From the IMG/VR virus record IMGVR_UViG_2651869748_000011: a stretch of 15,748 nt of DNA; one strand, written 5' to 3'. Within the stretch, counting starts at the first letter, position 1, and each line of letters begins with the position of its first letter. The translations under genes were made by a program, and so were the position numbers. The DNA comes from a virus. Taxonomy: Duplodnaviria; Heunggongvirae; Uroviricota; Caudoviricetes. Positions 1 through 15,748 of this stretch are shown piece by piece. The notes under the pieces are model-generated. The model made no database searches and was not told the DNA's origin. It saw nothing but the letters and a program-made list of their open reading frames with translations.

Positions 1-246
1 TCAGTATTTCCCCGATACCTTGTGTGCAAATTGCATCAGATAGTTGATAGCCTTTTGTTTGTCGTTCTGGCTGAGTTCGTGCTTACCACAGAATACAGCC
101 ATTCCGAATCCGGCTTGTGATTGCGCCATCCCCATAGCAGCCATCACATCAGTACCGGAAAGAGAGTCAGAAGCCGTAGCCCGTGGTGAGTCGCTCATCA
201 TCGGGCTTTTTGGCGAATGAAATTTAGCTACGCTTTCGAGTCTCAT
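1..246 (-). CDS. Q: Late-gene antiterminator Q (lambda type), N-terminal 81 codons only; the ORF closes with TGA at window positions 1-3
   Basis: Translation [31 protein letters not shown]...KVSGKY matches the lambda Q N-terminus as recalled; ATG at 246-244 overlaps the ninI stop. Lambda Q is about 207 aa, so this copy appears truncated. Confidence 0.85.
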
Positions 247-908
247 GCGCCTTCTCCCTGTACCTGAATCAATGTGAGGTTTCCGCAGAACACTGCGCCG
301 GTATCGATATACATCTGGTTGGCAAACTTGAGTGGTTTCACTGCTGGCGTATGACCAAAGATGAACGTGTCCGCACCTTTGATTTCTTTCACGATCCCGT
401 CTTGTGAGTTGCTGATTCGTTCGCGGTTCCAGATTACCTGCTGATGATCAACTGGTTTTCCAAACTCGTATTCGTCACAAGGATAATCGGCGTGGCAGAT
501 GACATATTTTTTATCTTTGCTCACCAGTTCGATGATTAACGGAAGTTCATCTGCTTTATGGGCAAGAGCTTTAGCCAGAATTTCTTTGTCGTAATCGAGA
601 TTAAAGAACCATCCACCGCCATTAAGCAGCCAGTGATTAACGTTTCCACGCTCTGATAAGCCATCAATCATCATTTGCTCATGGTTTCCACGTACAGCTC
701 TGAACCAGGGGAATGTGATTAATTCCAGGCATTCGACGTTCTCTGCACCACGATCAACCAAATCGCCCACCGAGATAAGCAGGTCTTTTTTGTTGTCGAA
801 TCCAATCGTATCCAGTTTGTTCATCAGGTTCGTGTAGCATCCGTGCAGATCGCCAACTACCCAAATATTTCGGTATTTGCTGCCATCAATTTTTTCGTAA
901 TAGCGCAT
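243..908 (-). CDS. ninI: Ser/Thr protein phosphatase (lambda PPase, NinI), 221 aa
   Basis: Starts [25 protein letters not shown]; metallophosphatase motifs GDLHG, GDLVDRG, GNHE; near-identical to recalled lambda PPase. Start set at the internal ATG (906-908) rather than the upstream end of the ORF. Confidence 0.93.
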
Positions 909-1092
909 CTCTTTCACTCCATCCGCGATGAACCATAAGAACATCGTTGACGATGGCGTGCATTTTCCCGTCTTTATCATCAACGTATTTTCTGACCGTA
1001 CCGCGACTACATTTCAGTCTGCGTGCTACTTCTGTCTGGTTTCCGTATGCTTCAACGAGCATGTCTGGAATGGTTTTTACTGAGAACGTCAT
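886..1092 (-). CDS. ninH: NinH (lambda orf68)
   Basis: 68-aa [39 protein letters not shown]...; position between ninG and ninI follows lambda nin order; HTH-like segment. Confidence 0.85.
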
Positions 1093-1700
1093 GCGGCCTC
1101 ACTTCTGCTATTTCGCAGGTCTTTGAGTTTCTGTTGGTACTCTGCCTTGATCGCCTTGCACTCTTCGACAGTCCAGCGATGGCGGCTATGGTTTGATTCG
1201 ATTTCGTCTACTGCTTCCTGCCCGATGCGGTTAATCAGTTCGACGCGATACGGAACGAGATTTCCGCTTTTGTGCTGGTTGCACACCACGCATTGCTTGT
1301 GAATATTGCGTTCATCAAATCGGAGTTGAGGTGCCGCAGCAGTTGTCCGGTAATGTCCGGCATCCCACTGAGCAGACGTGAGCGTTCCGCACGAGATACA
1401 TGGTAAGTCGCGGTCTCTTTCTCTGATGAAGGCGTTTACAGCTTGTTGGGCTTGTTTAATCCAGTAACTGCGGGGCTTTAAGGCGAGTTTTCGAATCTTC
1501 AGTTTATCTTTCTGTTTCTGCTCCTCTCGTCGTCGTTTCTTCTCTGCTGCTTTTTCCGCTTTTTCGCGTTCTTTGCTTCGTCGTTCCAGTGCTATCTTTG
1601 TTCCACACTCTGGAGAGCACCACCACTGATTAGCGAATGCAGGGTGAAACCATTCCCGACATTCTTCGTTTTTACATCGTCTTCGCGCTTGTTTAGCCAT
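1089..1700 (-). CDS. ninG: NinG / Rap recombination protein (lambda orf204)
   Basis: 203 aa, [33 protein letters not shown]...; Cys-rich Zn-binding N-terminus; matches lambda NinG as recalled; start overlaps upstream stop. Confidence 0.9.
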
Positions 1701-1969
1701 TATGGTTCGCTCCAGTAATTCTCAATTGCAGCAGCCATTCTCTGCATCCACTCTGCCAGCTTTAACGCGGCTTCTCTTTCAGAACCACATTTAGGGAAAT
1801 CCTTCATTTCCATGCTGGCCTTATATGTTCTGAATGCCAGGTCTCCGGTAATAACCAGCTCCTGATCAAGCACCGAGCGTTTATTCCGGTGTTGAACGTA
1901 ATAGACAGATTCAGTCCGCATTTCTTCTCTGTCTTTTTTGAAGGAAATAAGCTCAGAGAAATCACTCAT
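1700..1969 (-). CDS. Hypothetical 89-aa protein between ninF and ninG (not present in lambda at this position)
   Basis: ATG at 1969-1967 overlaps the ninF stop (ATGAGTGA); stop overlaps the ninG ATG, so it is translationally coupled within the nin operon. No family recognised. Confidence 0.6.
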
Positions 1970-2138
1970 CGTCTTCTTCCTCGTACATTGAGCTATTCGG
2001 ATCGCTCATCAGTTCTGCGCAGCAGTGCTCACACACATGAACTTCCAGCACATGCAGCTTCTGACCGCAGTTAGCGCACGTTAAAGCCCGCTCGACGCTT
2101 TCTTTCTGGTATTGAAGAGATTGGGATGGGCTAAGCAT
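1962..2138 (-). CDS. ninF: NinF (58 aa)
   Basis: Not in the ORF track (under 60 aa). Reverse-complement of 1962-2138 translates to [58 protein letters not shown], matching lambda NinF as recalled; CxxC...CxxC Zn-ribbon. Confidence 0.85.
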   Translation of the reverse strand: MLSPSQSLQYQKESVERALTCANCGQKLHVLEVHVCEHCCAELMSDPNSSMYEEEDDE

Positions 2139-2490
2139 TATTGGCGTCCTGCATCATGAGAAAGACAATCATGGCGGCGCGGAGGGAATTTTCATGTATA
2201 GCTAGCTTAGATTTACAGTCGGCCACACCACGTGCACCCCACTCGTCTTCATCGAGATTGATGATGCTAATCCTGTACTTCTCAATAATCGGCCATGAGG
2301 CGCTAGGATCATTGCAGTAGTCAGGCAAAGGGTTTAATGGCTCAAAAGTTGTATCAGCATTTCCGTAATACCATTTGTTGGTGTTATTCCCTGATGTTTC
2401 CGGTTTACATGCCCAAAGGCCTTTAAAAATTATGTCTCCTACCATTCTGTTAATTTCAAAATCACTTAACTGTGAATAATCCATTGTCAT
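2131..2490 (-). CDS. Hypothetical nin-region protein, possibly NinX-like (119 aa), lying between ninE and ninF
   Basis: ORF 2131-2526 begins at a GTG inside ninE; the more likely start is the ATG at 2490-2488, which overlaps the ninE TGA (ATGA). The ninE-X-ninF position matches P22/HK97-type nin regions. Family assignment is tentative. Confidence 0.55.
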
Positions 2491-2663
2491 TTCCTCGCAC
2501 GATGTCTTAGCCACCGGATATCCCACAGGTGAGCCGTGTAATTGAAGGTTTTTACGTCAGATTCTTTTGGGATTGGCTTGCGTTTATTTCTGGAGCGTTT
2601 CGTTGGAAGGTATTTGCAGTTTTCGCAGATGATGTCGGTGATACTTCGTCGCTGTCGTCTCAT
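2487..2663 (-). CDS. ninE: NinE (58 aa)
   Basis: [58 protein letters not shown] matches lambda NinE as recalled; ATG at 2663 overlaps the methyltransferase stop. Confidence 0.88.
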
Positions 2664-3187
2664 GCCGCCCTCCTGACGCCCTGCCCGATCGCCATCAATG
2701 CCGCTTTGGATACGGTAGTAAACATCCGTCGAGGACTGATGAACGGTCGCCAAATCAGCAGCATGGAACCTTTGCTGTTTCCCTTCTTCTCCAGCCCTGT
2801 CGATGGTTCGATAAAATTAATCCGTCCATCAGTGATAATACGAACTTCGTCAACACTCTCCAGAGCCTTGCTGAACCATCCGACAGACATATCCTCTGGC
2901 ACAAGCATCACTACCGTCTGTCGCTGTTGTATGCACTGCTCAGCGGCTTTTTCCACCCACGGCCTGATATTGCTGTACGGTGGGTTATTCCAGATTGCAC
3001 CGTGGCTTACCCACTCAGAATTGAGCGCGTCGTCGGCCTCAGTTAACCAGTGAGCGCACAGAGCATTTTTGTCGCTCGCTGCCGAATCCAGCCAGAATCC
3101 AAACTCAATATCCAGTGCATCAAAAAGCCAAAGCGGCGTTTGCCAGCAGTCCTTGTCGTGTGCTGGCGTATTTGATTTGATAGTCAT
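2660..3187 (-). CDS. Phage DNA N6-adenine methyltransferase (Dam-like orphan MTase) occupying the ninC/ninD slot
   Basis: [31 protein letters not shown]...; NPPY catalytic motif (AIWNNPPYS) typical of N6-adenine MTases; ATG at 3187 overlaps the ninB stop (ATGA). Confidence 0.8.
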
Positions 3188-3624
3188 GCAGCCCGATCTC
3201 CCCATCTCGCTTTCCACTCCAGAGCCAGTCTCGCTTCGTCTGACCACTTAACGCCACGCTCTGTACCGAATGCCTGTATAAGCTCTAATAGCTCCGCAAA
3301 TTCGCCTACACGCATCCTGCTGGTTGACTGGCCTATTACCACAAAGCCATTCCCGGCAAGGTTAGGAACAACATCCTGCTGCTTTAATGCTGCGGTAAAC
3401 ACACACTTCCAGCTTTCTGCATCCAGCCAGCGACCATGCCATTCAACCTGACGAGAGACGTCACCTAAGCAGGCCCATAGCTTCCTATTTTGGTCTAAGC
3501 TGCGGTTGCGTTCCTGAATGGTTACTACGATTGGTTTGGTTGGGTCTGGAAGGATTTGCTGTACTGCGTGAATAGCGTTTTGCTGATGTGCTGGAGATCG
3601 AATTTCAAAGGTTAGTTTTTTCAT
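3184..3624 (-). CDS. ninB: NinB recombination protein (lambda orf146)
   Basis: From MKKLTFEIRSPAHQQNAIHAVQQILPDPTKPIVVTIQERNRSLDQNRKLWACLGDV... 146 aa matching lambda NinB as recalled; strong SD (GGAGAGGGAAG) upstream of the ATG at 3624. Confidence 0.92.
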   Translation of the reverse strand: MKKLTFEIRSPAHQQNAIHAVQQILPDPTKPIVVTIQERNRSLDQNRKLWACLGDVSRQVEWHGRWLDAESWKCVFTAALKQQDVVPNLAGNGFVVIGQSTSRMRVGEFAELLELIQAFGTERGVKWSDEARLALEWKARWGDRAA

Positions 3625-3639
3625 GACTTCCCTCTCCCC

Positions 3640-3672
3640 CAAATAAAAAGGCCTGCGATTACCAGCAGGCCT
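3640..3672 (-). terminator. tR2-like rho-independent terminator between ren and ninB
   Basis: On the minus strand: AGGCCTGC-(8-nt loop)-GCAGGCCT followed by TTTTTATTTG; 8-bp GC-rich stem plus U-tract; matches the lambda tR2 position. Confidence 0.8.
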
Positions 3673-3697
3673 GTTATTAGCTCAGTAATGTAGATGG

Positions 3698-3988
3698 TCA
3701 TCTTTTAACTCCATATACCGCCAATACCCGTTTCATCGCGGCACTCTGGCGACACTCCTTAAAAATCAGGTTCGTGCTCATCTTTCCTTCCCGTTCTTCC
3801 CTGGTAGCAAACCGGTAATACACCGTTCGCCAGACCTTACCTTCGATAACCAGAAGACCTGCCCGTGCCATTTTAGCCGCGGCCTGATTTATGCTGGTTA
3901 CTGTTGCGCCTGTTAGCGCGGCAACGTCCGGCGCACAGAAGCTATTATGCGTCCCCAGGTAATGAATAATTGCCTCTTTGCCCGTCAT
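3698..3988 (-). CDS. ren: Ren (Rex-exclusion escape protein), 96 aa
   Basis: MTGKEAIIHYLGTHNSFCAPDVAALTGATVTSINQAAAKMARAGLLVIEGKVWRTVYY... matches lambda Ren; ATG overlaps the P stop. Confidence 0.92.
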   Translation of the reverse strand: MTGKEAIIHYLGTHNSFCAPDVAALTGATVTSINQAAAKMARAGLLVIEGKVWRTVYYRFATREEREGKMSTNLIFKECRQSAAMKRVLAVYGVKR

Positions 3989-4686
3989 ACACTTGCTCCT
4001 TTCAGTCCGAACTTAGCTTTAATTTCTGCGATCTTCGCCAGAGCCTGTGCACGATTTAGAGGTCTACCGCCCATAACAGGAAGTTGTTTTACTGGTTCAG
4101 GTATCGTCTCACCACGGTTAATTCGCGCTGTCATACAGGTCAGTTCATCGGCAGCCTTGCGCCGTAATTCCGCATCAGTAAGCGCATTGGCCCGCATGTT
4201 CTGATACAGGTTGGTAACCAGCCAGTAGTGCGCGTTTGATTTCCACGGATAAGACTCCGCATCCGGATACAGGCCTCGCTTCCGGCAATACTCGTAAACC
4301 ATATCAACCAGCTCGCTGACGTTTGGCAGTCCGGCGATAACGGATGCTTCTTCCCGGCACCATGCAACAAACTGCCCGGGTGATGGCAGAAATGGTCGAT
4401 TCTGCCGACGGGCTACGCGCATTCCTGCGTTAACCTGTTCCATCGTGGTGATCCCGTTTTCCCGAAAAGCCAGAACCCACTGGCGACGGATTTCGTTCAC
4501 TTCGTTCTGGTCACGGTTAGCCAGGCTCGCCGGGAAAGTTGCCAGTAACTGGCTGAACACACCGTTGATGATCTGCGCTACCTGCTGTACCTGCGGCTTT
4601 TCGTCGTACTGTTCCGGCATGTTGTTGGCGATCCGACGCATCTGCTCACGGTCAAAGTTAACCATCTGTGCGGCGATGTTTTTCAT
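3985..4686 (-). CDS. P: Replication protein P (DnaB helicase loader), 233 aa
   Basis: MKNIAAQMVNFDREQMRRIANNMPEQYDEKPQVQQVAQIINGVFSQLLATF... matches lambda P; start overlaps the O stop. Confidence 0.95.
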   Translation of the reverse strand: MKNIAAQMVNFDREQMRRIANNMPEQYDEKPQVQQVAQIINGVFSQLLATFPASLANRDQNEVNEIRRQWVLAFRENGITTMEQVNAGMRVARRQNRPFLPSPGQFVAWCREEASVIAGLPNVSELVDMVYEYCRKRGLYPDAESYPWKSNAHYWLVTNLYQNMRANALTDAELRRKAADELTCMTARINRGETIPEPVKQLPVMGGRPLNRAQALAKIAEIKAKFGLKGASV

Positions 4687-5582
4687 AGATCCACCCCGTA
4701 AATCCAGTCTGTGTTTGTCAGGTCGAGTTTTGGTTTGCTGGCTGTCACGACTGCCTGTTGCTTGTTACGGTTGATTTCGAGCTGGGTCCACTTGTCGCGG
4801 AGTTTGGCCGGACTAAGCACGTTACCGGACCAGAAGTTGTCCTGGCATGCCCAGCGGAACAGCACGCACATGTCGCGGTGGTTACGTCCGTCACGTTCAC
4901 GCATCAGGCGGATATCGTTAGCCCACCCTGCAAAATTCGGTTTTCTGGCTGATGGCGCGATGGTCTTCACCATGTCAAACATCCACTCTGCGGCGGTCAG
5001 GTCTTCTGCTGTCCCCCACTTGCTGCCGCTCTGAATTGCAGCATCCGGTTTCACCACAGAAAGATCGTTTTCTGGCTGGTCAGAGGATTCGCCAGAATTC
5101 TCTGACGAATAATCTTTTCTTTTTTCTTTTGTAATAGTGTCTTTTGTGTCCCTCTGTTTTGAGGGATAGCAATCCCCCAATTTGAGGGATGTTTTATCCC
5201 TCGTTTTAGGGGATTTTCCCTCGTTTTGAGGGATACACCATTCTGAGATGTTTTTATTTGGTCCAAACATGCCGCCTTGCTGCTTGATAATATTCATTCT
5301 GACGAGTTCTAACTTGGCTTCATTGCACCGTTTGACGGGTAACTTTGTAATCTCGCTAAGTTGAGAATCGGTGACTCTGTCCATTGGTTTATTCCACCCA
5401 TAGGTTTTACGCAGAATGGCAAGCAGCACTTTAAACTGTCGCTTGGTCAGATCTGCGCCCGAATAAGCCTCAAGCAGCATATTTGATAGTCTGGCGTAAC
5501 CATCATCGAGATCTGCCACATTACGCTCCTGTCCGGCAAAGTTACCTCTGCCGAAGTTGAGTATTTTTGCTGTATTTGTCAT
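4683..5582 (-). CDS. O: Replication initiator O, 299 aa
   Basis: MTNTAKILNFGRGNFAGQERNVADLDDGYARLSNMLLEAYSGADLTKRQFKVLLAILRKTYGWNKPMD... matches lambda O; the origin iterons lie inside the coding sequence. Confidence 0.95.
   Translation of the reverse strand: MTNTAKILNFGRGNFAGQERNVADLDDGYARLSNMLLEAYSGADLTKRQFKVLLAILRKTYGWNKPMDRVTDSQLSEITKLPVKRCNEAKLELVRMNIIKQQGGMFGPNKNISEWCIPQNEGKSPKTRDKTSLKLGDCYPSKQRDTKDTITKEKRKDYSSENSGESSDQPENDLSVVKPDAAIQSGSKWGTAEDLTAAEWMFDMVKTIAPSARKPNFAGWANDIRLMRERDGRNHRDMCVLFRWACQDNFWSGNVLSPAKLRDKWTQLEINRNKQQAVVTASKPKLDLTNTDWIYGVDL
5100..5233. other. ori-lambda: four iterons plus adjacent AT-rich region, inside O
   Basis: Four ~18-bp inverted-symmetry repeats of the type TCCCTCnnTTTGAGGGA at about 5149-5166, 5173-5189, 5197-5213 and 5217-5233; AT-rich tract at about 5100-5148 (cttttcttttttcttttgtaatagtg). 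Confidence 0.9.
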
Positions 5583-5592
5583 AATGACTCCT

Positions 5593-5669
5593 GTTGATAG
5601 ATCCAGTAATGACCTCAGAACTCCATCTGGATTTGTTCAGAACGCTCGGTTGCCGCCGGGCGTTTTTTA
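5593..5669 (+). ncRNA. oop: oop antisense RNA (~77 nt), overlapping the cII 3' end
   Basis: Plus-strand terminator CGCUCGG-UUGCCG-CCGGGCG followed by UUUUUU at 5643-5668, antisense to the cII 3' end. The 5' end is inferred from the lambda arrangement (start about 10 nt ahead of the O ATG), not seen directly. Confidence 0.65.
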
Positions 5670-5908
5670 TTGGTGAGAATCGCAGCAACTTGTCGCGCCA
5701 ATCGAGCCATGTCGTCGTCAACGACCCCCCATTCAAGAACAGCAAGCAGCATTGAGAACTTTGGAATCCAGTCCCTCTTCCACCTGCTGATCTGCGACTT
5801 ATCAACGCCCACAGCTTCCGCTGTCTTCTCAGTTCCAAGCATTGCGATTTTGTTAAGCAACGCACTCTCGATTCGTAGAGCCTCGTTGCGTTTGTTTGCA
5901 CGAACCAT
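5615..5908 (-). CDS. cII: Transcriptional activator cII, 97 aa
   Basis: MVRANKRNEALRIESALLNKIAMLGTEKTAEAVGVDKSQISRWKRDWIPKFSMLLAVLEWGVVDDDMARLARQVAAILTNKKRPAATERSEQIQMEF matches lambda cII; start taken at the ATG at 5908. Confidence 0.95.
   Translation of the reverse strand: MVRANKRNEALRIESALLNKIAMLGTEKTAEAVGVDKSQISRWKRDWIPKFSMLLAVLEWGVVDDDMARLARQVAAILTNKKRPAATERSEQIQMEF
5886..5899 (+). promoter_or_regulatory. cII-binding site of PRE (TTGC-N6-TTGC), directing plus-strand transcription toward cI
   Basis: ttgcgtttgtttgc on the plus strand just inside the cII 5' end, as in the lambda PRE -35 region. Confidence 0.7.
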
Positions 5909-5987
5909 ATGTAAGTATTTCCTTAGATAACAATTGATTGAATGTATGCAAATAAATGCATACACCATAGGTGTGGTTTAATTTGAT

Positions 5988-6019
5988 GCCCTTTTTCAGG
6001 GCTGGGATGTGTAAGAGCG
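5988..6019 (-). promoter_or_regulatory. nutR (boxA CGCTCTTAC, boxB GCCCTGAAAAAGGGC), with the tR1 region downstream toward cII
   Basis: Minus-strand sequence cgctcttacacatcccagccctgaaaaagggcatcaaa; boxB hairpin at 5988-6002, boxA at 6011-6019; palindrome TATGCAAATAAATGCATA at about 5944-5961 in the tR1 region. Confidence 0.85.
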
Positions 6020-6027
6020 GGAATATC

Positions 6028-7383
<1,356 letters not shown>

Positions 7384-7433
7384 TCCCCACCTCAATCTCG
7401 ATAACCAAAAAACAAACTATTTTCCGTTTAAAA

Positions 7434-7502
7434 ACAATGGAGTTTGTTTTTCATGCCCCTTTTTTACAATATTTCTTGTTTACAACATACAATCTTTCTT
7501 GT
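7434..7502. promoter_or_regulatory. 434-type left operator region (OL) and PL promoter upstream of nutL and N
   Basis: 14-bp ACAA-N6-TTGT sites: ACAATATTTCTTGT (7466-7479), ACAATCTTTCTTGT (7489-7502), and a weaker candidate ACAATGGAGTTTGT (7434-7447). Confidence 0.65.
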
Positions 7503-7548
7503 AATTTTAAGCCATCAGCAGGACGCACTGACCACCATTGAAGGTGAT

Positions 7549-7578
7549 GCTCTTAAAAATTAAGCCCTGAAGAAGGGC
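7549..7578 (+). promoter_or_regulatory. nutL (boxA GCTCTTAA, boxB GCCCTGAAGAAGGGC)
   Basis: Plus-strand sequence gctcttaaaaattaagccctgaagaagggcagcattcaaagcag matches lambda nutL as recalled. Confidence 0.88.
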
Positions 7579-7736
7579 AGCATTCAAAGCAGAAGGCTTT
7601 GGGGTGTGTGATACGAAACGAAGCATTGGCCGGAAGTGCGAATCCGGATTAGCTGCAAATGAGCCAATCGTGGGGTGTTTTCGTTCAGGACTACGACTCA
7701 CACACACCACCAAAGCTAACTGACAAGAGAATCCAG

Positions 7737-8060
7737 ATGGATGCACAAACACGCCGCCGCGAACGTCGCGCAGAGAAACAGGCTCAATGGAAAGTAGCAA
7801 ATCCCCTGTTGGTTGGGGTAAGCGCAAAACCAGTTAACCGCCCTATTCTCTCGCTGAATCGCAAACCGAAATCACGAGTAGAAAGCGCACTGAATCCGAT
7901 AGACCTTACAGTGCTGGCTGAATACCACGAACAGATTGAAAGCAACCTGCAACGTATTGAGCGCAAGAATCAGCGCACATGGTACAGCAAGCCTGGCGAA
8001 CGCGGCATAACATGCAGTGGACGCCAGAAAATTAAGGGAAAATCGATTCCTCTTACCTAG
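7737..8060 (+). CDS. N: Antiterminator N, lambda type (107 aa)
   Basis: MDAQTRRRERRAEKQAQWKVANPLLVGVSAKPVNRPILSLNRKPKSRVESALNPIDLTVLAEYH... arginine-rich motif; matches lambda N; the longer 7659 start in the ORF track is disfavoured. Confidence 0.93.
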   Translation: MDAQTRRRERRAEKQAQWKVANPLLVGVSAKPVNRPILSLNRKPKSRVESALNPIDLTVLAEYHEQIESNLQRIERKNQRTWYSKPGERGITCSGRQKIKGKSIPLT

Positions 8061-8615
8061 TTACTTAGATATTGGCCTTGGCTTTATCTCAATATTATAT
8101 GGATCATAGCTGGCAACTAATTCAGTCCAGTAAATATCCTCAATAGGGAATAATATATGCTTCCCGTTCCATCGGGAAAAAGTTTTGTTCAACACACCAA
8201 GCTCAATCAACTCACTAATGTATGGGAATTGTTTTGATGTAACCACATACTTCCTGCCTTCATTAAGGGCTGCGCACAAAACCATAGATTGCTCTTCTGT
8301 AAGGTTTTGAATTACCGATCGCACTTTATCGTTTTGCATCTTAATGCGTTTTCTTAGCTTAAATCGCTTATATTTGGCGCTGGCAATAGCTGATAATCGA
8401 TGCACATTAATTGCTAGCGAAAATGCAAGAGCAAAGACGAAAACATGCCACACATGAGGAATACCGATTCTCTCATTAACATATTCAGGCCAGTTATCTG
8501 GGCTTAAAAGCAGAAGTCCAACCCAGATAACGATCATATACATGGTTCTCTCCAGAGGTTCATTACTGAACACTCGTCCGAGAATAACGAGTGGATCCAT
8601 TTCTATACTCATCAA
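8061..8615 (-). CDS. sieB: Superinfection exclusion protein SieB (membrane protein), 184 aa
   Basis: Abuts N tail-to-tail as in lambda; hydrophobic segments MYMIVIWVGLLLLSP and HVWHVFVFALAFSLAI; matches lambda SieB as recalled. Confidence 0.82.
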   Translation of the reverse strand: MMSIEMDPLVILGRVFSNEPLERTMYMIVIWVGLLLLSPDNWPEYVNERIGIPHVWHVFVFALAFSLAINVHRLSAIASAKYKRFKLRKRIKMQNDKVRSVIQNLTEEQSMVLCAALNEGRKYVVTSKQFPYISELIELGVLNKTFSRWNGKHILFPIEDIYWTELVASYDPYNIEIKPRPISK

Positions 8616-8739
8616 ACTGTAGGGGTTGTAATAGTTTATCCGATTTCTCGCTGTAGGGGTACACGAGAACCACCGAGCCTGATGTGGTTAAAAGACAGGC
8701 ACAATCTTTACTACCGCAATCCACTATTTAAGGTGATAT

Positions 8740-8826
8740 ATGGAAGAAGAATTTGAAGAGTTCGAAGAGCATCCGCAGGATGTAATGGAACAGTACCAGG
8801 ACTATCCGTATGACTACGACTATTGA
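8740..8826 (+). CDS. Small acidic 28-aa ORF upstream of, and overlapping, ral; doubtful gene
   Basis: MEEEFEEFEEHPQDVMEQYQDYPYDYDY; ATG preceded by AAGGTGA; not in the ORF track because of its size. Confidence 0.3.
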   Translation: MEEEFEEFEEHPQDVMEQYQDYPYDYDY

Positions 8827-8989
8827 TAAGAATCAATGGTGTGGACAATTCAAGCGATGCAATGGATGCAAGCTGCAATCGGAATGCATGGTTAAGCCTG
8901 AAGAAATGTTTCCTGTAATAGAAGATGGGAAATATGTCGATAAATGGGCAATACGAACGACGGCAATGATTGCCAGAGAACTTGGTTAA
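8810..8989 (+). CDS. ral: Ral (restriction-alleviation protein) with a premature in-frame TAA; 59 aa here versus about 66 aa in lambda
   Basis: MTTTIDKNQWCGQFKRCNGCKLQSECMVKPEEMFPV.EDGKYVDKWAIRTTAMIARELG then TAA; the same frame continues as QNNKAA-TGA (stop at 9008-9010), matching the lambda Ral C-terminus as recalled. Confidence 0.75.
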   Translation: MTTTIDKNQWCGQFKRCNGCKLQSECMVKPEEMFPVIEDGKYVDKWAIRTTAMIARELG

Positions 8990-9109
8990 CAGAACAACAA
9001 AGCTGCCTGATAGTGGCCTTTATTTTTGGCATAAATAACAGAATAAACACTGCACTGAACCGCCCCGGGAATCCTGGAGACTAAACTCCCTGAGAAAGAG
9101 GTAAACAGG

Positions 9110-9436
9110 ATGACTAAAAATACTCGTTTTTCCCCTGAAGTCCGTCAACGGGCAGCCCGTATGGTTCTGGAAAGTCAGGGCGAATATGACTCACAATGGG
9201 CGACAATTTGTTCCATTGCTCCAAAGATTGGCTGTACGCCGGAGACTCTGCGTGTCTGGGTTCGCCAGCATGAGCGGGATACCGGGGGCGGTGATGGAGG
9301 GCTCACCACCGCTGAACGTCAGCGTCTGAAAGAGCTGGAGCGTGAAAATCGTGAACTGCGCCGCAGTAACGATATCCTTCGCCAGGCTTCCGCTTATTTT
9401 GCGAAGGCGGAGTTCGACCGCCTCTGGAAAAAATAA
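9110..9436 (+). CDS. IS3-family transposase OrfA (HTH/leucine-zipper part)
   Basis: [60 protein letters not shown]...; A6 run at the orfA/orfB overlap is the likely programmed -1 frameshift window. Confidence 0.9.
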
Positions 9437-10323
9437 TGCCGCTGCTGGATAAGCTGCGTGAGCAGTACGGGGTCGGACCGCTATGCAGCGAACTGCATAT
9501 TGCCCCGTCAACGTATTACCACTGTCAGCAACAGCGACATCATCCGGATAAACGCAGTGCCCGTGCGCAGCGCGATGACTGGCTGAAGAAAGAGATACAG
9601 CGCGTATACGATGAAAATCACAAGGTATACGGTGTGCGTAAAGTCTGGCGTCAGTTGTTACGGGAAGGAATCAGAGTGGCCAGATGCACTGTGGCACGTC
9701 TCATGGCGGTTATGGGACTTGCCGGTGTTCTCCGGGGTAAAAAGGTCCGCACTACCGTCAGCCGGAAAGCCGTTGCCGCATGCGACCGCGTAAACCGTCA
9801 GTTCGTGGCAGAACGTCCAGACCAGTTGTGGGTGGCTGATTTTACCTGGGTAAGCACATGGCAGGGCTTCGTTTATGTGGCGTTCATCATTGATGTGTTC
9901 GCCGGATACATCGTGGGATGGCAGGTCTCATCATCCATGGAAACAACATTCGTGCTGGATGCACTGGAGCAGGCGTTGTGGGCCCGTCGGCCGTCCGGCA
10001 CAATCCATCACAGTGATAAAGGTTCTCAGTATGTATCGCTGGCCTACACGCAGCGGCTTAAGGAAGCCGGATTACTGGCATCAACAGGGAGTACTGGCGA
10101 CTCGTATGACAACGCGATGGCGGAGAGCATCAATGGTCTTTACAAAGCGGAGGTAATACACCGTAAGAGCTGGAAAAACCGTGCAGAAGTGGAACTGGCC
10201 ACACTCACGTGGGTGGACTGGTATAACAATCGACGATTGCTGGAAAGGCTGGGCCATACTCCCCCGGCAGAAGCAGAAAAAGCTTATTATGCTTCCATCG
10301 GAAACGATGATCTGGCAGCCTGA
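9436..10323 (+). CDS. IS3-family transposase OrfB (DDE integrase-like catalytic domain)
   Basis: [15 protein letters not shown]...WVADFTWVSTWQGFVYVAFIIDVFAGYIVGW...HHSDKGSQYVS...DNAMAESINGLYKAEV; rve-type DDE domain. Confidence 0.9.
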   Translation: MPLLDKLREQYGVGPLCSELHIAPSTYYHCQQQRHHPDKRSARAQRDDWLKKEIQRVYDENHKVYGVRKVWRQLLREGIRVARCTVARLMAVMGLAGVLRGKKVRTTVSRKAVAACDRVNRQFVAERPDQLWVADFTWVSTWQGFVYVAFIIDVFAGYIVGWQVSSSMETTFVLDALEQALWARRPSGTIHHSDKGSQYVSLAYTQRLKEAGLLASTGSTGDSYDNAMAESINGLYKAEVIHRKSWKNRAEVELATLTWVDWYNNRRLLERLGHTPPAEAEKAYYASIGNDDLAA

Positions 10324-10365
10324 GTTCACAGATAAAACACTCTCCAGGAAACCCGGGGCGGTTCA

Positions 10366-10554
10366 CTGCGTGTGTGGGTTCGTCAGCATGAGCGGGATAC
10401 CGGGAGTGGTGATGGTGGACTCACCACCGCTGAACGTCAGCGTCTGAAAGAGCTGGAACGTGAAAATCGTGAACTGCGCCGCAGTAACGATATCCTTCGC
10501 CAGGCTTCCGCTTATTTTGCGAAGGCGGAGTTCGACCGCCTCTGGAAAAAATAA
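10366..10554 (+). pseudogene. 5'-truncated orfA remnant of the second IS element
   Basis: Encodes ...[60 protein letters not shown] with no native start codon or left inverted repeat. Confidence 0.8.
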
Positions 10555-11441
10555 TGCCGCTGCTGGATAAGCTGCGTGAGCAGTACGGGGTCGGACCGGT
10601 ATGCAGTGAACTGCATATTGCCCCGTCAACGTATTACCACTGTCAGCAACAGCGACATCATCCTGATAAACGCAGTGCCCGTGCTCAGCGCGATGACTGG
10701 CTGAAGAGAGAGATACAGCGCGTATACGATGAAAATCACAAGGTATACGGTGTGCGTAAAGTCTGGCGCCAGTTGTTACGCGAAGGTATCAGGGTGGCCA
10801 GATGTACAGTGGCGCGCCTCATGGCGGTTATGGGACTTGCCGGTGTTCTCCGGGGTAAAAAGGTCCGTACTACCGTCAGCCGGAAAGCCGTTTCCGCAGG
10901 CGACCGCGTAAACCGTCAGTTCGTGGCAGAACGTCCTGACCAGCTGTGGGTGGCTGATTTTACTTACGTCAGCACATGGCAGGGCTTCGTCTATGTGGCG
11001 TTCATCATTGATGTGTTTGCCGGATGTATCGTGGGGTGGCGAGTCTCATCGTCTATGGAAACGACATTCGTGCTGGATGCACTGGAGCAGGCGTTGTGGG
11101 CCCGTCGGCCGTCCGGCACAGTCCATCACAGTGATAAAGGTTCTCAGTATGTATCACTGGCCTATACGGAGCGACTAAAAGAAGCAAAACTGCTGGCATC
11201 AACAGGGAGTACAGGTGACTCGTATGACAACGCGATGGCGGAGAGCATCAATGGTCTTTACAAAGCGGAGGTAATACACCGTAAGAGCTGGAAAAACCGT
11301 GCAGAAGTGGAACTGGCCACACTCACGTGGGTGGACTGGTATAACAATCGACGATTGCTGGGAAGGCTGGGTCATATCCCTCCGGCAGAAGCAGAAAAAG
11401 CTTATTATGCTTCCATCAGAAACGATGATCTGGCAGCCTGA
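10554..11441 (+). CDS. IS3-family transposase OrfB of the truncated element (probably not expressible as OrfAB)
   Basis: 295-aa ORF about 95% identical in protein to copy-1 OrfB (e.g. FAGCIVGWRVSSS versus FAGYIVGWQVSSS). Confidence 0.8.
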   Translation: MPLLDKLREQYGVGPVCSELHIAPSTYYHCQQQRHHPDKRSARAQRDDWLKREIQRVYDENHKVYGVRKVWRQLLREGIRVARCTVARLMAVMGLAGVLRGKKVRTTVSRKAVSAGDRVNRQFVAERPDQLWVADFTYVSTWQGFVYVAFIIDVFAGCIVGWRVSSSMETTFVLDALEQALWARRPSGTVHHSDKGSQYVSLAYTERLKEAKLLASTGSTGDSYDNAMAESINGLYKAEVIHRKSWKNRAEVELATLTWVDWYNNRRLLGRLGHIPPAEAEKAYYASIRNDDLAA

Positions 11442-11713
11442 GTTCACAGATAAAACACTCTCCAGGAAAACCGGGGCGGTTCAAATAACATTGTGCGTAC
11501 TCCTCTTGAGAAGGTGAGAACTATCGGTATCGCAGACACAGTTATGCCTACGGGTCTCCCCGCATCGGTCATTCTCAAAAGGTTTAAAATAGGGTTAGGT
11601 TTGATCACTCTGAACGATCAATCGAAGACATTACGATTGGAACAAACGATCAATAGGTATGTGGTTATTTGCTAAGCTGCGACAACCTTTACAAAGACAC
11701 TCAGGAATGTTTC

Positions 11714-12022
11714 ATGCCCAAATTAGCTATTAGCTTATTACTTTACTTGGCCTGCTTTTATGCAGTTGGATATGGCGCTGGATATATAACAGGTGGAATA
11801 ACTTGGCACACACTGTATATGCTTGAACGTATAATTACCGTAGCCCTACTTGCATTCATTCCAGTGTTTATCTTTGCGGCTTTATTAAATGCATCCAAAA
11901 GACAAGGAATAATAAAATCACTTTCTGTCTCAGCGATTAATTTAATCCCTTCGGCTATCGCATTACTTATAGGATTTACTGACGCAGTGACCAGAAAGTT
12001 TCTTACTTATTTTCTCGGTTAA
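11714..12022 (+). CDS. Small hydrophobic membrane protein (102 aa, about 3 predicted TM helices), AT-rich gene
   Basis: MPKLAISLLLYLACFYAVGYGAGYITGG...ERIITVALLAFIPVFIFAALL...INLIPSAIALLIGF; SD AGGAA 9 nt upstream; its 3' end overlaps the convergent 63-aa gene by about 20 bp. Confidence 0.55.
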   Translation: MPKLAISLLLYLACFYAVGYGAGYITGGITWHTLYMLERIITVALLAFIPVFIFAALLNASKRQGIIKSLSVSAINLIPSAIALLIGFTDAVTRKFLTYFLG

Positions 12023-12194
12023 CTGACATATTGCGAATGACCAACTGTTCTATTAGCTCATTACGAGAATAAAATGGTCGGTCATTCGTAGCCGCTTTAT
12101 CCACGCCAAGCATCGACAATAGAATAGAAGTGGGAAGCCCCCGGTAACGCAGGGTCAAACGGCCTTCGGGAGTGCGTGGGTCAATCATAGCCAT
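12003..12194 (-). CDS. Hypothetical 63-aa protein, translationally linked to the upstream 161-aa gene
   Basis: ATG at 12194 sits 2 nt after the upstream TAA and is preceded by GGAG; MAMIDPRTPEGRLTLRYRGLPTSILLSMLGVDKAATNDRPFYSRNELIEQLVIRNMSVNRENK. Confidence 0.5.
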   Translation of the reverse strand: MAMIDPRTPEGRLTLRYRGLPTSILLSMLGVDKAATNDRPFYSRNELIEQLVIRNMSVNRENK

Positions 12195-12196
12195 TG

Positions 12197-12682
12197 TTAA
12201 AGTCTCCACTCACAGCGACCGACACGTAGCTCCTCAAACTCCTCTTTCGAGACGAGTTGTCCAGCCCTGTAGTGCGATACCGTGTGCTTCTTAATGAATG
12301 CCTTAGAGTCCGGCGTGATGTCGTCCGAAGATGCTACAGCGGCCTGTACGCTGGCACTGGAGGTCATAGACACAAAGGCATCCGCTACAGCTATTCCGTA
12401 CTCAAAGTCCAGCCACTCGCCAAACTTGACGGCGGACGTGGGGTCAGCAAGCCATGACGTACCGAGGCGACCCATATCAACTTTCTTTATGCGGCGGTTT
12501 TTCTGCCCCATAAGATAGCGCCCGACTTTGGTCTGAGCGAAACGCTTAACCATTGTCTTCTCGGTGTCTTCTACCTTACCAATCTGAATACCGACCCGGC
12601 GAATTTCATCCAATCGGAACAATCCGTCTTGACTGGTGAGGTCCTGACCGAAGATATGGATAGTGTATTCTTGTTGAGACAT
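12197..12682 (-). CDS. Hypothetical 161-aa protein, possibly KilA-N-like DNA-binding domain
   Basis: MSQQEYTIHIFGQDLTSQDGLFRLDEIRRVGI...GRLGTSWLADPTSAVKFGEWLD resembles the KilA-N conserved core (G-T-[WY]-x-H/A...W-L motif); strong SD AAAAGGAG upstream of the ATG at 12682. Assignment is from memory. Confidence 0.6.
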   Translation of the reverse strand: MSQQEYTIHIFGQDLTSQDGLFRLDEIRRVGIQIGKVEDTEKTMVKRFAQTKVGRYLMGQKNRRIKKVDMGRLGTSWLADPTSAVKFGEWLDFEYGIAVADAFVSMTSSASVQAAVASSDDITPDSKAFIKKHTVSHYRAGQLVSKEEFEELRVGRCEWRL

Positions 12683-12905
12683 ATCGTTGTACTCCTTTTA
12701 TCTGCATCCTGAAGCCGCATCCTGCCGCCTACTCAAAGCCCCCAACGATAGGGAGACGGCAGGCAACAAGACGCAGATAGAATGACTTTGAGATTTGATG
12801 ATTAGTGTCGGCGGTGGCACTTATTTAAAACGAAAGGACAACAGCATATTTCCGCATGACTTGACGCATCAAGGCCAGAGGCAGAAATAAGTATTTGCTC
12901 GGTGT

Positions 12906-12929
12906 CGTTCCTAAGGTGATAGTTTAGTC
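12906..12929 (-). promoter_or_regulatory. Second, weaker phage-RNAP promoter-like copy sharing the same -18 to -5 block
   Basis: Minus strand GACTAAACTATCACCTTAGGAACG; a 14-nt block (GACTAAACTATCAC) is identical to the upstream copy, but the initiation region is degenerate. Confidence 0.3.
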
Positions 12930-13447
12930 AAACAGTAATGAACTTCGGAGAACTTGACTCGAAAGTGTTCAGGACTTCCAGTGAGACCCGAAGTATGGAG
13001 ATCATATTATAGCGACCATAGTTTACTTCGGACTGACAGGACTGGAGGCTGGACTTAAAGTTCTTCTTATTGGAATTGTGATAACACAATCCATAACAAG
13101 ATAAACTCATGGTCTCCTCAAGCCTGCTGGTCAAGACTCAAAGCTCCAACCTCAGACACCACCACTGGTCTAACCTCTTTGAGTTTCCGCCTGTCCACAA
13201 ATGGATGGCAGACCTCAGCAATGATGTCTTGGTTCTTCAGTTATCCGCGCAGCGATTATCACAGAGCCAACTTAAAGTCGGATGTGGTCTTCTGCTCCCC
13301 GCCTGTCAAAAGGGAAGATAACCTACGTTAAAAGAGAATGGTCTCAGGCCAAGGTGATTTAACACTAGGCGTCTGCGGATGGTTTCCAATCGGTCCGCTA
13401 CCGGAAGCCTGAGACTATATGAATGTGTGGGTCGGTGACTTAGGGCC

Positions 13448-13470
13448 TCTCCCTATAGTGATAGTTTAGT
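13448..13470 (-). promoter_or_regulatory. T7-family single-subunit RNA polymerase promoter-like sequence (candidate), predicted start G at 13453
   Basis: Minus strand ACTAAACTATCACTATAGGGAGA; positions -8 to +6 (TCACTATAGGGAGA) are identical to the T7 consensus, while -17 to -9 differ (a different specificity region); located 18 bp downstream of the 219-aa gene stop. Confidence 0.45.
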
Positions 13471-13488: not shown

Positions 13489-14148
13489 CTACTCGTTAGC
13501 GGCCTGTTGCTGTTCCCTCGCTTTCCGGTCCCGGTCTTCAATGCCCTTAAGCGCCCGTTCCGGCATACTGTTAAACATGGCTTCGACTTCTTTCGGTCGA
13601 GTAATCTGCTCAGTGACAATAATGTTCAGCAGCTTAAAGAGACCATGCGCCAACTGAGGGTCGTCATCAATGTTAATTTCACCCGGATGTACCGCCTGAT
13701 TGCCAACAATACGACAGATGTCAGCAGCTCGCTGGACCAGTGGAGACAGCCCTTTAGCTACAAGGGACTTAATGTCCGTGTCGATATGCTTCCCCGGCTC
13801 ACCGAGATGGACCATCAGCTTTTGAAGACTTAAGCGCAGGAGTGCGGCAGCGCCCTTAGGTGACAGATTAATGATGCTTCTGGCTTCCATGTAGTCGGAC
13901 TTACAGTCTTCTGGCATGTCAGGATTAGGCAGCTCAACACTACCAGCCGCAGGAATCATCATATTGCCTTTATACCAATAAGCATTTTCATAGCAATGTT
14001 GACAATATGATAAGTGGAAATCAGTTTCCATATAAGTAGAATGAGGCGCAACTCCCACCATTGACCGCCAGCTTTGCTTGGAATAAACACCACAGTGCGG
14101 GCAATTAAAAGCTTTACCATCAAACACCGCCGGATAATACTCAGCCAT
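13489..14148 (-). CDS. 219-aa protein with N-terminal Zn-ribbon (CPHCG...CQHC) and a C-terminal region possibly DUF4145/HEPN-like; translationally coupled to the integrase
   Basis: [25 protein letters not shown]...[13 protein letters not shown]...; C-terminal motif [17 protein letters not shown]; its ATG (14148-14146) overlaps the integrase TGA (ATGGCTGA). Family call is tentative. Confidence 0.6.
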
Positions 14149-15748
14149 TTACTCCAGTCTCCTTATAAACATCAGCCATCACATTAACCAATCTATCTAC
14201 CTCGACTTCTTTCGCATACCTGTCATAGGTAATCGACCCTGAGCTATGACCCATAATCGCCTGAGCATACGCTAACCCGACCCCATGTTGTTTTAACTGG
14301 GTCGCCACTGTATGTCTGAATGAGTGGAACGCTAAGCCGCTACGGTCAGCGAGGACTTTAGGTAGCAACGTTCTGTTAAACCATTTGCTCACCTGCTCAC
14401 CGTAGCCGTTCTTCATCAGCTTGAGGCCATCGAATACCATAGCATTATCACCCTTAGCCTTTCTACGGTCTTCCACGAGTGACATAAAGTCAGCCAATAA
14501 AAAACCATAAGCACCATCTACCAACGGGACACAGCGGTCACTATGGGCGTTCTTGATGCTCTTACCCGGTAGGCTGCTATCGTCTTCGTTGATATGGATA
14601 TACACGGTCCCGGCCTCAGTGGTCCTGACGTCTTTGACCTGAAGCTGAGCCACCTCATTAAGTCTTGCTCCAGTGATTGCCGCCAGAGCAGTGACGTAAT
14701 AGTGGTAGGGCTTACCTGAGGTCTTCTGAGAGTACGCTTTAGCGGCGACCAGTAGTTGCCCTACCTGCTCAGGACTGAACGCATCACGAGCGTCGGAGGC
14801 TTTACGCTGCGGGACTTTCAGCTCAAGACCTTCGGTCAGGTTCTTAGCTATCAAGTCGTTGCGTACCGCCCACTTAAACACAGCAGCCATCTTGATAAGA
14901 TATTTATTGTTGATGGTAACGACATCCAAACAGTCAGTCTTAGACTCCCGGTTCAGCAGGTCAGACAGCGGCATAGACTTAAAGCGTTGCTTGCGGTTCT
15001 TCGGTATCTGCTGGAGGACTTCACGGACCCTGAGCATATCTGAACGGGTCGCCTTGCTGACATCCTGAATATCCAGATAGTCGAATATCTCGATTAACGT
15101 AGAGTGAGACGCTCGGTTCTCGCTTAGGGTCGCTGGCTTCCAGTTCTGAGCGTTCTCCTGCTCGTACTGCTCAATGAGAGACGCGAGGGTCAGTGCTTTA
15201 GGCTCGGGGACTTCAGGCTCTGCCAATACAGATAGGGAGACGGACGGTCTTAGACTGCCAGTCTCAGGCTCAAGGTAAGACAACAGGCCAGAGGTATCGC
15301 CTTTGAGTCTATCCTGACACGCTTTAAGCACACCGATAACGTCATTGATATAGCGATGCTGGTCTACAGTCAGATGCTCAGTCGCTACAGCTTCCCGAAG
15401 GTTGGACTTGATGTCATCGTACTGGTCAACGTAGAGCTGGTAGGACTCAGGGTCGTTCAGGTCATCGCGGCTGACACTAAGTTCCCACTCGACAATGGTC
15501 TTCAGGTGTTCCCGTAGCTCCTCATAAGAGGCGTTAGGGTTGTCTGCGTGGATTGCTTTAAGTGCTGACTTGATGTGCCGTGAGTGAGCCATAGCGGTAC
15601 GTCTATCCTTGGTCCGTAAAGATACTGACGCTAGTTTATAACGGTTGTGAGAAGGAAGCGAAGCGGTCAGGCGACTAGTGGTCTTCATCCTAAGACGGAT
15701 GTAAAAGACACCGTTACGCTGATAAAGGTAGGTTCTTGAATTGAGCAT
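14141..15748 (-). CDS. Tyrosine site-specific recombinase / integrase (535 aa), unrelated to lambda Int
   Basis: C-terminal catalytic residues: R in [12 protein letters not shown]-x-x-R in [10 protein letters not shown] in [11 protein letters not shown]; N-terminus [20 protein letters not shown] typical of large-N-terminus integrases; its ATG is the last 3 bases of the window. Confidence 0.85.

Follow-up and report, generated by a model that had tools for sequence, protein, structure and literature searches.

The viral stretch IMGVR_UViG_2651869748_000011 (Caudoviricetes), 15,748 nt long and hereafter called the window, carries on its plus strand at 11714-12022 a 102-codon gene for a predicted three-helix inner-membrane protein of an orphan family, and our main finding is that this gene belongs to the core of a small integrase-bearing island, occupying the window from 11484 onward, in which the convergent operon is headed by sequences of the promoter type used by T7-like phages. 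We give an even chance to the overall picture of an island-core oligomeric membrane protein coupled to an operon that responds to T7-like phages. The more specific role of an oligomeric inner-membrane exclusion or abortive effector against such phages is put forward tentatively. It may likewise be suggested, though with more doubt than conviction, that the window holds the remnant, truncated by insertion sequences (IS), of an undescribed minimal island class which parasitises or resists virulent T7-like phages, using promoter arrays as infection sensors with specificity boxes swappable between phage genera, and in which the membrane gene, one of only two invariant genes, would be toggled by transcription from the phage polymerase, in antisense here and in sense in another architecture. 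An AT-rich membrane reading frame is by itself of modest interest, and it is the island context that raises it. The comparison loci are labelled L002, L003 and so on to L051.

Several features argue that the 102-codon open reading frame is a real gene under purifying selection. It starts with ATG, preceded by an AGGA 8 nt upstream, and RefSeq genomes annotate it together with the convergent 63-codon gene at identical boundaries, both as 'hypothetical protein'. The frame is retained without insertion or deletion out to a synonymous divergence (dS) of about 1.4, the ratio of nonsynonymous to synonymous divergence (dN/dS) amounts to 0.13-0.37 among the copies of E. coli, Pectobacterium, Photorhabdus and Hafnia, and across 20 homologues 43 positions are invariant, including CFYAVGY.xGYIT.G..W and the C-terminal GF..AVT...LTYF; the conserved C-terminal motif of the protein reads GFTDAVTR.FLTYF. 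A preliminary description of this DNA had judged the gene by eye to be more AT-rich than its surroundings, with a GC content in the mid-30s %, and this is borne out by computation, since the gene has 36.9% GC, and 28.2% at third codon positions (GC3), as compared to 48.2% GC for the window, and falls within the lowest 0.5% of GC among all 309-bp windows of the stretch. Rare codons account for 22% of the gene versus 5-13% in the neighbouring genes, and GC3 of the neighbours in the window (the 63-aa, 161-aa, RAZR and integrase genes) is 45-58%. The sole other comparably AT-rich stretch lies at about 7189-7577 (low windows start near 7189-7269; minimum 36.2% GC per 309 bp), in the lambdoid prophage part of the window.

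The claim that the gene encodes a small multi-helix membrane protein also holds. Kyte-Doolittle hydropathy peaks of at least 1.6 are found at residues 4-22, 33-62 and 66-93, and AlphaFold2, supplied with a 20-sequence alignment, places helices at residues 2-25, 31-64 and 67-101, albeit with low confidence (pLDDT 64). Lysine and arginine number one at the N-terminus, none in the first loop, three in the second loop and two at the C-terminus, and their concentration at the N-terminus and in loop 2 fits an N-in/C-out topology, which is probably the one adopted. A glycine zipper, GxxxGxxxG, at residues 19-27 is retained in homologues of 36-38% identity and suggests that the protein forms homo-oligomers. 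A reading of the N-terminus as a lipoprotein or signal peptide was rejected, since by inspection the YLAC context of Cys14 misfits a lipobox and the cysteine is missing in distant homologues.

The 102-, 63- and 161-aa proteins have no match above threshold in Pfam, PHROGs, PADLOC or NCBIfam, and the best PHROG match of the 102-aa protein (E 0.035) is to a family of unknown function; no holin profile matched it. Sequence and profile searches of the PDB with the same three proteins gave nothing, and in tblastn against 50,697 phage records they went unmatched, except that the 161-aa protein reached an Ant protein at E 0.09. A word-index search of 5.8 billion clusters returned 48 proteins, nearly all of 102 aa and, where the source was named, every one from Enterobacterales, and a profile search over all 1.84 billion representative proteins returned six matches to the family, two of them 101-aa proteins of 36-38% identity which retain VGY..GY..GGVTW.T.Y..ER and GF. 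The distant homologues adjoin integrases of 65-74% identity and are found in two other island architectures. The one plasmid match is not an independent context, since the record has chromosomal flanks (actS, lysS) and holds the same island. As far as these searches reach, the family is an orphan confined to Enterobacterales and to integrase-bearing islands.

An intact island measures about 6.4 kb, and the 3' end of tRNA-Gly(CCC) is repeated directly over 17 bp at its two borders, as in L002 (6028-12416); similar attachment-site (att) repeats are present in L003, L007, L015 and L018. One carrier of an intact copy is E. coli Combat13F7 (NZ_CP019245). In the main architecture the order is integrase, a cargo gene overlapping the integrase gene, about 800 bp of non-coding DNA, a gene for a protein of 161-190 aa, the 63-aa gene, the inverted membrane gene, and genes for proteins of 163 and 326 aa, with all genes on one strand save the membrane gene. 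This order is seen in E. coli, Enterobacter, Pectobacterium, Photorhabdus, Hafnia and Buttiauxella, and copies in Kluyvera and Shimwellia share it, the tRNA gene not being found in the DNA examined. Only the integrase and the membrane gene are common to all three architectures.

The membrane gene is accompanied by a conserved upstream element. Two CGATCAAT boxes, a candidate operator or promoter element, stand on the plus strand of the window at 11615-11622 and 11647-11654 (11615-11654 in all), 32 bp apart and at -99 and -67 from the ATG, with a TTGATC 15 bp upstream, and each box contains a GATC Dam site. The pair occupies -99/-67 or -100/-68 in main-type loci, with a single box in L006, and -95/-64 in L012 and L013, while L009 has one box at -70 and the TTGATC, the rest of its region being unalignable; elsewhere in about 210 kb of loci only five copies of CGATCAAT occur. 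Conservation of the 222-bp intergenic region is furthermore about 80% even when the island types compared have flanking proteins of 36% identity. Since the integrase and the boxed membrane gene are shared by all three architectures, gene and boxes form a module of their own that goes with this family of integrases, and we infer that the membrane gene is expressed from its own regulated promoter. A structured RNA upstream of the gene was considered and rejected, as the RNAalifold energy is weak and covariation almost nil.

The second pillar of our reading is the set of phage-type promoter sequences on the opposite strand. The first, P1 (ACTAAACTATCACTATAGGGAGA; 13448-13470, minus strand), begins 19 nt past the stop codon of the cargo gene RAZR, points at the operon of the 161-aa and 63-aa genes, and agrees at 23 of 23 positions with the annotated late promoter at 20967-20989 of Escherichia phage Ro45lw (Kayfunavirus, Autographiviridae), a 39.8-kb genome with seven related promoter copies. 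It is unique in the window, where none is expected by chance. Viral contigs with its 20-nt core number 18, of which one measures 72.9 kb and the other 17 measure 39-40 kb, and the core is also found, several times per record, in 235 phage records. P1 spans 23 bp from -17 to +6, is identical to the T7 consensus TCACTATAGGGAGA from -8 to +6, and has what defines a promoter of the T7 group, namely the conserved CACTATAGGGAGA, a phage-specific box at -8 to -12 and many copies in the cognate phage, the difference being that it is found in an island of a bacterial chromosome and not in a phage. A second T7-type promoter-like 23-mer, P2 (ACTAAACTATCACCTTAGGAACG; 12906-12928, minus strand), agrees with P1 at 18 of 23 positions, and its orthologues in L006 (CACTGTAGGAAC) and L007 (CACTATAGGAGAG) resemble annotated class-II-type promoters of Ro45lw.

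Such sequences recur in other islands. The exact CACTATAGGGAGA core is present in 15 copies in 11 of 18 loci, always on the operon strand and, in the main-type loci scanned, always between the integrase and cargo genes and the variable slot gene that opens the operon, and every main-type island has two to five T7-type elements, again all on the operon strand (the window, L002, L003, L004, L006, L007 and L015-L018 carry such sequences). The specificity boxes vary among islands, type 1 being ACTAAACTAT, type 2 AATCAAACCCA or AATGAGACCCA, type 3 TAAGGAAGGTA and type 4 ATATACCCT; one viral contig of 39.9 kb has eight copies of the type 2 box and another, of 38.5 kb, has six, and a contig of 39.7 kb has the type 3 box twice. 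In L009, TAATACGACTCACTAATGG(G/A)AG is present three times; the best copy matches the canonical T7 promoter at 20 of 23 positions, and viral contigs of 38.5-40.8 kb contain the string as well. A site in L012-L014, CACTATGGGGAAA, was not counted as a promoter, since it occurs once, departs from the 13-nt core at two positions and stands at about chance level per locus. Beyond the promoters no DNA is shared between island and phages, the flanks of the promoters included. A literature search of one library returned no description of chromosomal islands with T7-type promoters, nor of DUF6971 or DUF6538, which is absence of evidence and not proof of novelty.

Taken together these features suggest the following course of events. 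In the uninfected cell host polymerase would make little membrane protein, and the AT-rich, rare-codon coding sequence would hold its level low. Once a T7-like phage, here one of Kayfunavirus type, makes its own RNA polymerase, P1 and P2 would fire, leading to expression of the 161-aa and 63-aa genes. The window has neither a terminator nor a class-II T7 stop signal from P1 to the membrane gene, and neither an intrinsic terminator nor a sigma-70 promoter around the overlap of the convergent genes; since no terminator intervenes, the phage polymerase should read on through the membrane gene in antisense. In an intact island, where the operon strand has no sigma-70-like site and the sole terminator-like hairpin follows the 326-aa gene, the transcript would continue to the 163-aa and 326-aa genes. 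Operon and membrane gene would in this way be coupled negatively, through polymerase collision and duplex RNA. The preliminary description had proposed antisense or transcriptional-interference control from the overlapping gene ends, and this idea gains in plausibility, beyond what a 20-bp overlap alone implies, because T7-like promoter sequences stand at the head of the operon to which the 63-aa gene belongs, and transcription from them would meet no terminator ahead of the membrane gene.

A number of observations weigh against this scheme. The activity of P1 and P2 and the read-through are deduced from sequence, as is antisense control itself, and P2, although identical to P1 from -17 to -5, is degenerate in its TATA part, with two changes in this strain. 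A simple scan upstream of the membrane gene found no sigma-70-like promoter. The island is truncated in the window, so that functions requiring the full operon are partly lost here. Furthermore, two T7-type promoters in L009 are placed upstream of the membrane gene and would read it in sense, meaning that antisense coupling is not family-wide and may be incidental to the function of the gene; indeed, as selection is maintained both in the antisense layout and in L009, the function cannot hinge on one orientation, and purifying selection in both argues that the gene's own promoter matters most. In addition, neither homology nor a confident structure (pLDDT 64) points to any biochemical role of the protein, and since RAZR defends alone when cloned (PMC13017515), that defence does not require the membrane protein. 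The direction of regulation outlined above, and a part for the protein in the island's dealings with T7-like phages, are what we propose. If the promoters work as implied, a chromosomal element would directly sense the polymerase of T7-like phages, with boxes swapped to match phage genera, and this would explain how a small island can respond even when the phages are strictly virulent and switch off transcription by the host. RAZR/PD-T7-4 would also gain a genomic home, and the 161-, 63-, 102-, 163- and 326-aa genes a clear and testable induction signal. The membrane gene is in any event recast from an odd AT-rich reading frame to a conserved module of box pair and three-helix glycine-zipper protein, and the differing orientations relative to the phage promoters among architectures amount to a natural experiment.

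Of the alternatives, a membrane-permeabilising effector induced by infection, that is a holin-like or abortive pore made in response to phage RNA polymerase and causing early killing or lysis, survives best, though we regard it as rather unlikely. It would agree with a protein of about 100 aa with three transmembrane helices and a glycine zipper, with the L009 gene standing in sense behind two T7-type promoters (L012-L014 having one weak, chance-level site in the same position), and with the notion that an AT-rich, rare-codon gene without a strong promoter would limit the basal level of a dangerous protein. In the window and in all main-type loci examined, however, phage polymerase would yield antisense RNA, and yet the gene is under purifying selection. 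The comparison with class I holins is likewise only partly favourable, as these share the size (90-125 aa in the class), the three predicted transmembrane helices and the GxxxGxxxG packing motif, but the 102-aa protein has no sequence similarity to them, and neither a charged C-terminal tail nor a dual start, its C-terminus TDAVTRKFLTYFLG having two lysines or arginines and one acidic residue before a hydrophobic end and its start being MPKL; in this architecture, moreover, the gene is antisense to the phage promoters. Neither a holin nor a defence model matched, and no endolysin or spanin gene neighbours the membrane gene in any locus examined. The suggestion in the preliminary description that the protein may be a toxin, a holin-like effector or an exclusion protein finds no family homology to draw on, and several traits that define type I toxins or class I holins are lacking, although the three-helix size does fit a holin.

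Improbable, in our view, is the notion of an independently acquired AT-rich 'moron', a passenger of low-GC origin that is functionally unconnected with island or phages. Its composition is clearly distinct from that of every neighbour, and gene and box pair behave as a cassette whose position and orientation vary among the three architectures. The gene is, however, never found outside the integrase-defined island family (six matches among 1.84 billion representatives, one scan of a genome collection, and no independent plasmid or phage context). Furthermore, its GC3 is 28-38% in every island, including the other architectures with 34-38% protein identity, whereas neighbours have 45-64%, and since low GC3 survives at a divergence where synonymous sites are saturated, it is a maintained trait rather than a leftover of a donor or a mark of recent arrival. 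AT-richness need therefore not imply recent transfer, and the separate horizontal origin proposed in the preliminary description is not supported, the gene being constant in one island family and diverging in parallel with the 63-aa gene; what survives is the weaker statement that it travels as a cassette with its boxes. One possibility is that low GC3 is kept because it slows translation of a possibly harmful membrane protein, another that it allows silencing by H-NS; a protein that binds H-NS is among the products of T7-like phages, and the Ro45lw annotation includes one.

Still harder to sustain is an addiction module in which a membrane toxin, restrained by the convergent 63-aa gene through its protein or the overlapping transcript, stabilises the island. 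The 63-aa gene (12003-12194, minus strand) is second in the operon, is under selection itself (dN/dS 0.13-0.36) and encodes a protein with no family or PDB match, and it overlaps the 102-aa gene tail to tail by exactly 20 bp at 12003-12022, as had been estimated before. The overlap keeps an identical register in the window, L002, L003, L006 and L007 and the same position in every main-type locus examined, the pair is present in 34 of 5,426 complete E. coli genomes, and within the main island type the two proteins diverge in parallel (63-aa/102-aa identities of 65/69, 85/86, 89/82, 95/91-93 and 97/98%). Small hydrophobic size, conserved overlap and strict linkage thus speak for such a module. 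Type I toxins (Hok/Sok, Ldr, TisB, Ibs) are, however, single-helix peptides usually of less than 60 aa, whereas this protein has 102 residues and three helices, and their antitoxin RNAs cover the toxin 5' untranslated region or ribosome-binding site or act in trans, whereas here only the last 20 coding nucleotides overlap, with a protein gene that is itself selected, leaving the ribosome-binding site uncovered. In addition, neither of the other architectures has a clear equivalent of the 63-aa gene (hhalign gives a probability of 7% against an 86-aa protein of L009, and none was found in L012), its position behind phage promoters is the wrong logic for a constitutive antitoxin, and neither toxin-antitoxin models nor Rfam antitoxin RNAs matched. 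Finally, a chance open reading frame in an AT-rich spacer antisense to the operon, a notion fed by the missing domain match and the capacity of such DNA to hold long frames, can be dismissed as far as sequence evidence goes in view of the indel-free length, the low dN/dS, the 43 invariant residues, the Shine-Dalgarno sequence, the three regularly spaced hydrophobic helices and the homologues of 34-38% identity that keep the same motifs.

An exclusion or abortive effector, our tentative proposal for the role of the protein, has parallels among known membrane proteins of superinfection exclusion, such as T4 Imm, P22 SieA and SieB, and the HK97 gp15 type, which keep an incoming phage from entering or developing. 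Common to these and the 102-aa protein is that a predicted small inner-membrane protein is encoded on a mobile element, apparently from its own promoter and near anti-phage functions, the difference being that the 102-aa protein has no homology to them. The island as a whole resembles phage satellites, since it is small, encodes an integrase beside which a defence gene is placed, is flanked by att repeats at a tRNA gene, and has a core operon that would apparently be switched on solely by a transcription function of the phage; integrase, att repeats and compact size are all found in the intact islands, attR having been lost in the window. Satellites are known to be activated by their helpers, P4 by the action of P2 Ogr on Psid and PLL, and PICI and PLE islands by induction through a helper phage. 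PICMI is a further island induced by a helper phage (PMC10803314). The trigger would differ here, since exact copies of phage promoters would be served by the single-subunit RNA polymerase that the phage itself encodes, T7-like phages being the ones concerned. A further difference is that no AlpA, primase or replicase, Fis, terminase or recognisable capsid gene was found in the island, profiles of AlpA, primase, replicase, terminase and capsid proteins having matched no island protein. Should the 163-aa or 326-aa protein prove to act in assembly or packaging, this would be the first satellite family of Autographiviridae.

The promoter layout in L009 also invites comparison with the T7 primary replication origin, in which tandem promoters are followed by an AT-rich stretch. 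In L009 two near-canonical T7 promoters (TAATACGACTCACTAATGGGAGG) are found in tandem at 7137-7159 and 7329-7351, followed by very AT-rich DNA at about 7520-7700, with the third copy at the stop of the membrane gene. The window has no strongly AT-rich stretch directly after P1 or P2, and downstream of them AT content is highest in the membrane gene itself (65-68% AT in 80-bp windows).

The cargo gene RAZR (PD-T7-4; 13489-14148, minus strand) encodes a zinc-ribbon and DUF4145/HEPN RNase (PADLOC PD-T7-4, E 1.7e-99; Pfam DUF4145) and is a known single-gene abortive-infection defence which aborts infection on phage portal or Gp77 rings (PMC13017515); the PD-T7-4 gene is also described in PMC9519451. 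It acts against T7-like phages (Vassallo 2022; Nature 2026, PMC13017515) and shares the island with the membrane gene, 19 nt upstream of P1, but whereas RAZR is sufficient alone and is variable cargo, with 70-94% identity between islands, the membrane gene is constant. In L004 and L051 the place of RAZR is taken by a protein of 202 aa that weakly matches RiboL-PSP-HEPN, and in L016 no RAZR homologue was detected. Since these three islands nonetheless keep the membrane gene, together with the promoter array, the membrane protein is not a component of RAZR; a component would be required or always linked, and the membrane protein, which has no PADLOC match, is not. The adjoining tyrosine integrase (14141-15748, minus strand; 535 aa, with a weak N-terminal DUF6538 match and Phage_integrase) overlaps RAZR by 8 bp, ranges from 528 to 550 aa across islands and is 90-98% identical between most main-type copies.

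The islands are otherwise mosaic, as the 161-aa slot holds unrelated proteins and the block of 163-aa and 326-aa genes reassorts independently. The 161-aa gene (12197-12682, minus strand), the first of the operon, has a strong AAGGAG Shine-Dalgarno sequence, and in other variants its slot is filled by unrelated proteins of 164-190 aa with weak KilA-N/Rha/Ant-like matches. A KilA-N identity is not asserted for the 161-aa protein, since the weak KilA-N/Rha matches are found only in these other variants. Between P1 and this gene lies a conserved non-coding leader of about 770 nt (12683-13452, minus strand), whose DNA is 82-91% conserved among E. coli-type islands, with a minimum-free-energy z-score of -3.6 on folding and a long predicted hairpin immediately before the 161-aa ribosome-binding site. 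No credible Rfam family was found in the leader or the region, and coding potential was rejected, since a 60-aa frame is broken in L006, L007 and L015 and no open reading frame is conserved.

The genes for the 163-aa and 326-aa proteins, at 6454-8011 of L002 and outside the window, have no known relatives beyond the following. The 163-aa protein has a coiled-coil tail; its L009 variant contains DUF6971, to which a faint precomputed match is also listed in L040. An HK97-like capsid identity was considered for the 326-aa protein, with an hhalign probability of 0.1% against gp10 of T7 and Ro45lw, no PDB match, no occurrence in phages and an AlphaFold2 model of pLDDT 37 only as results, and it is not asserted. 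Homologues of the 326-aa protein of about 80% identity, in clusters of more than 1,000 members, are also found in E. coli and Shigella in another context, next to a truncated molybdopterin-enzyme gene (L039).

In the window the island is cut by a 5'-truncated IS629-like copy of the IS3 family (10366-11483, plus strand) which lacks the first 195 bp or so and stands in tandem with a full copy (9053-10365, plus strand) of 94.6% identity. Merely 8 nt of the 163-aa gene are left (11484-11491), the rest of it, the 326-aa gene and attR having been removed by the IS copies, and for want of attR the remnant should be unable to excise normally. The junction of prophage, IS and island is absent from the complete E. 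coli genomes among the best matches listed. On its far side, joined to the island through the IS copies, the window carries at 244-9057 the early region of a lambdoid prophage, with O/P-like replication proteins, NinG, a LexA-family repressor and a Ser/Thr phosphatase.

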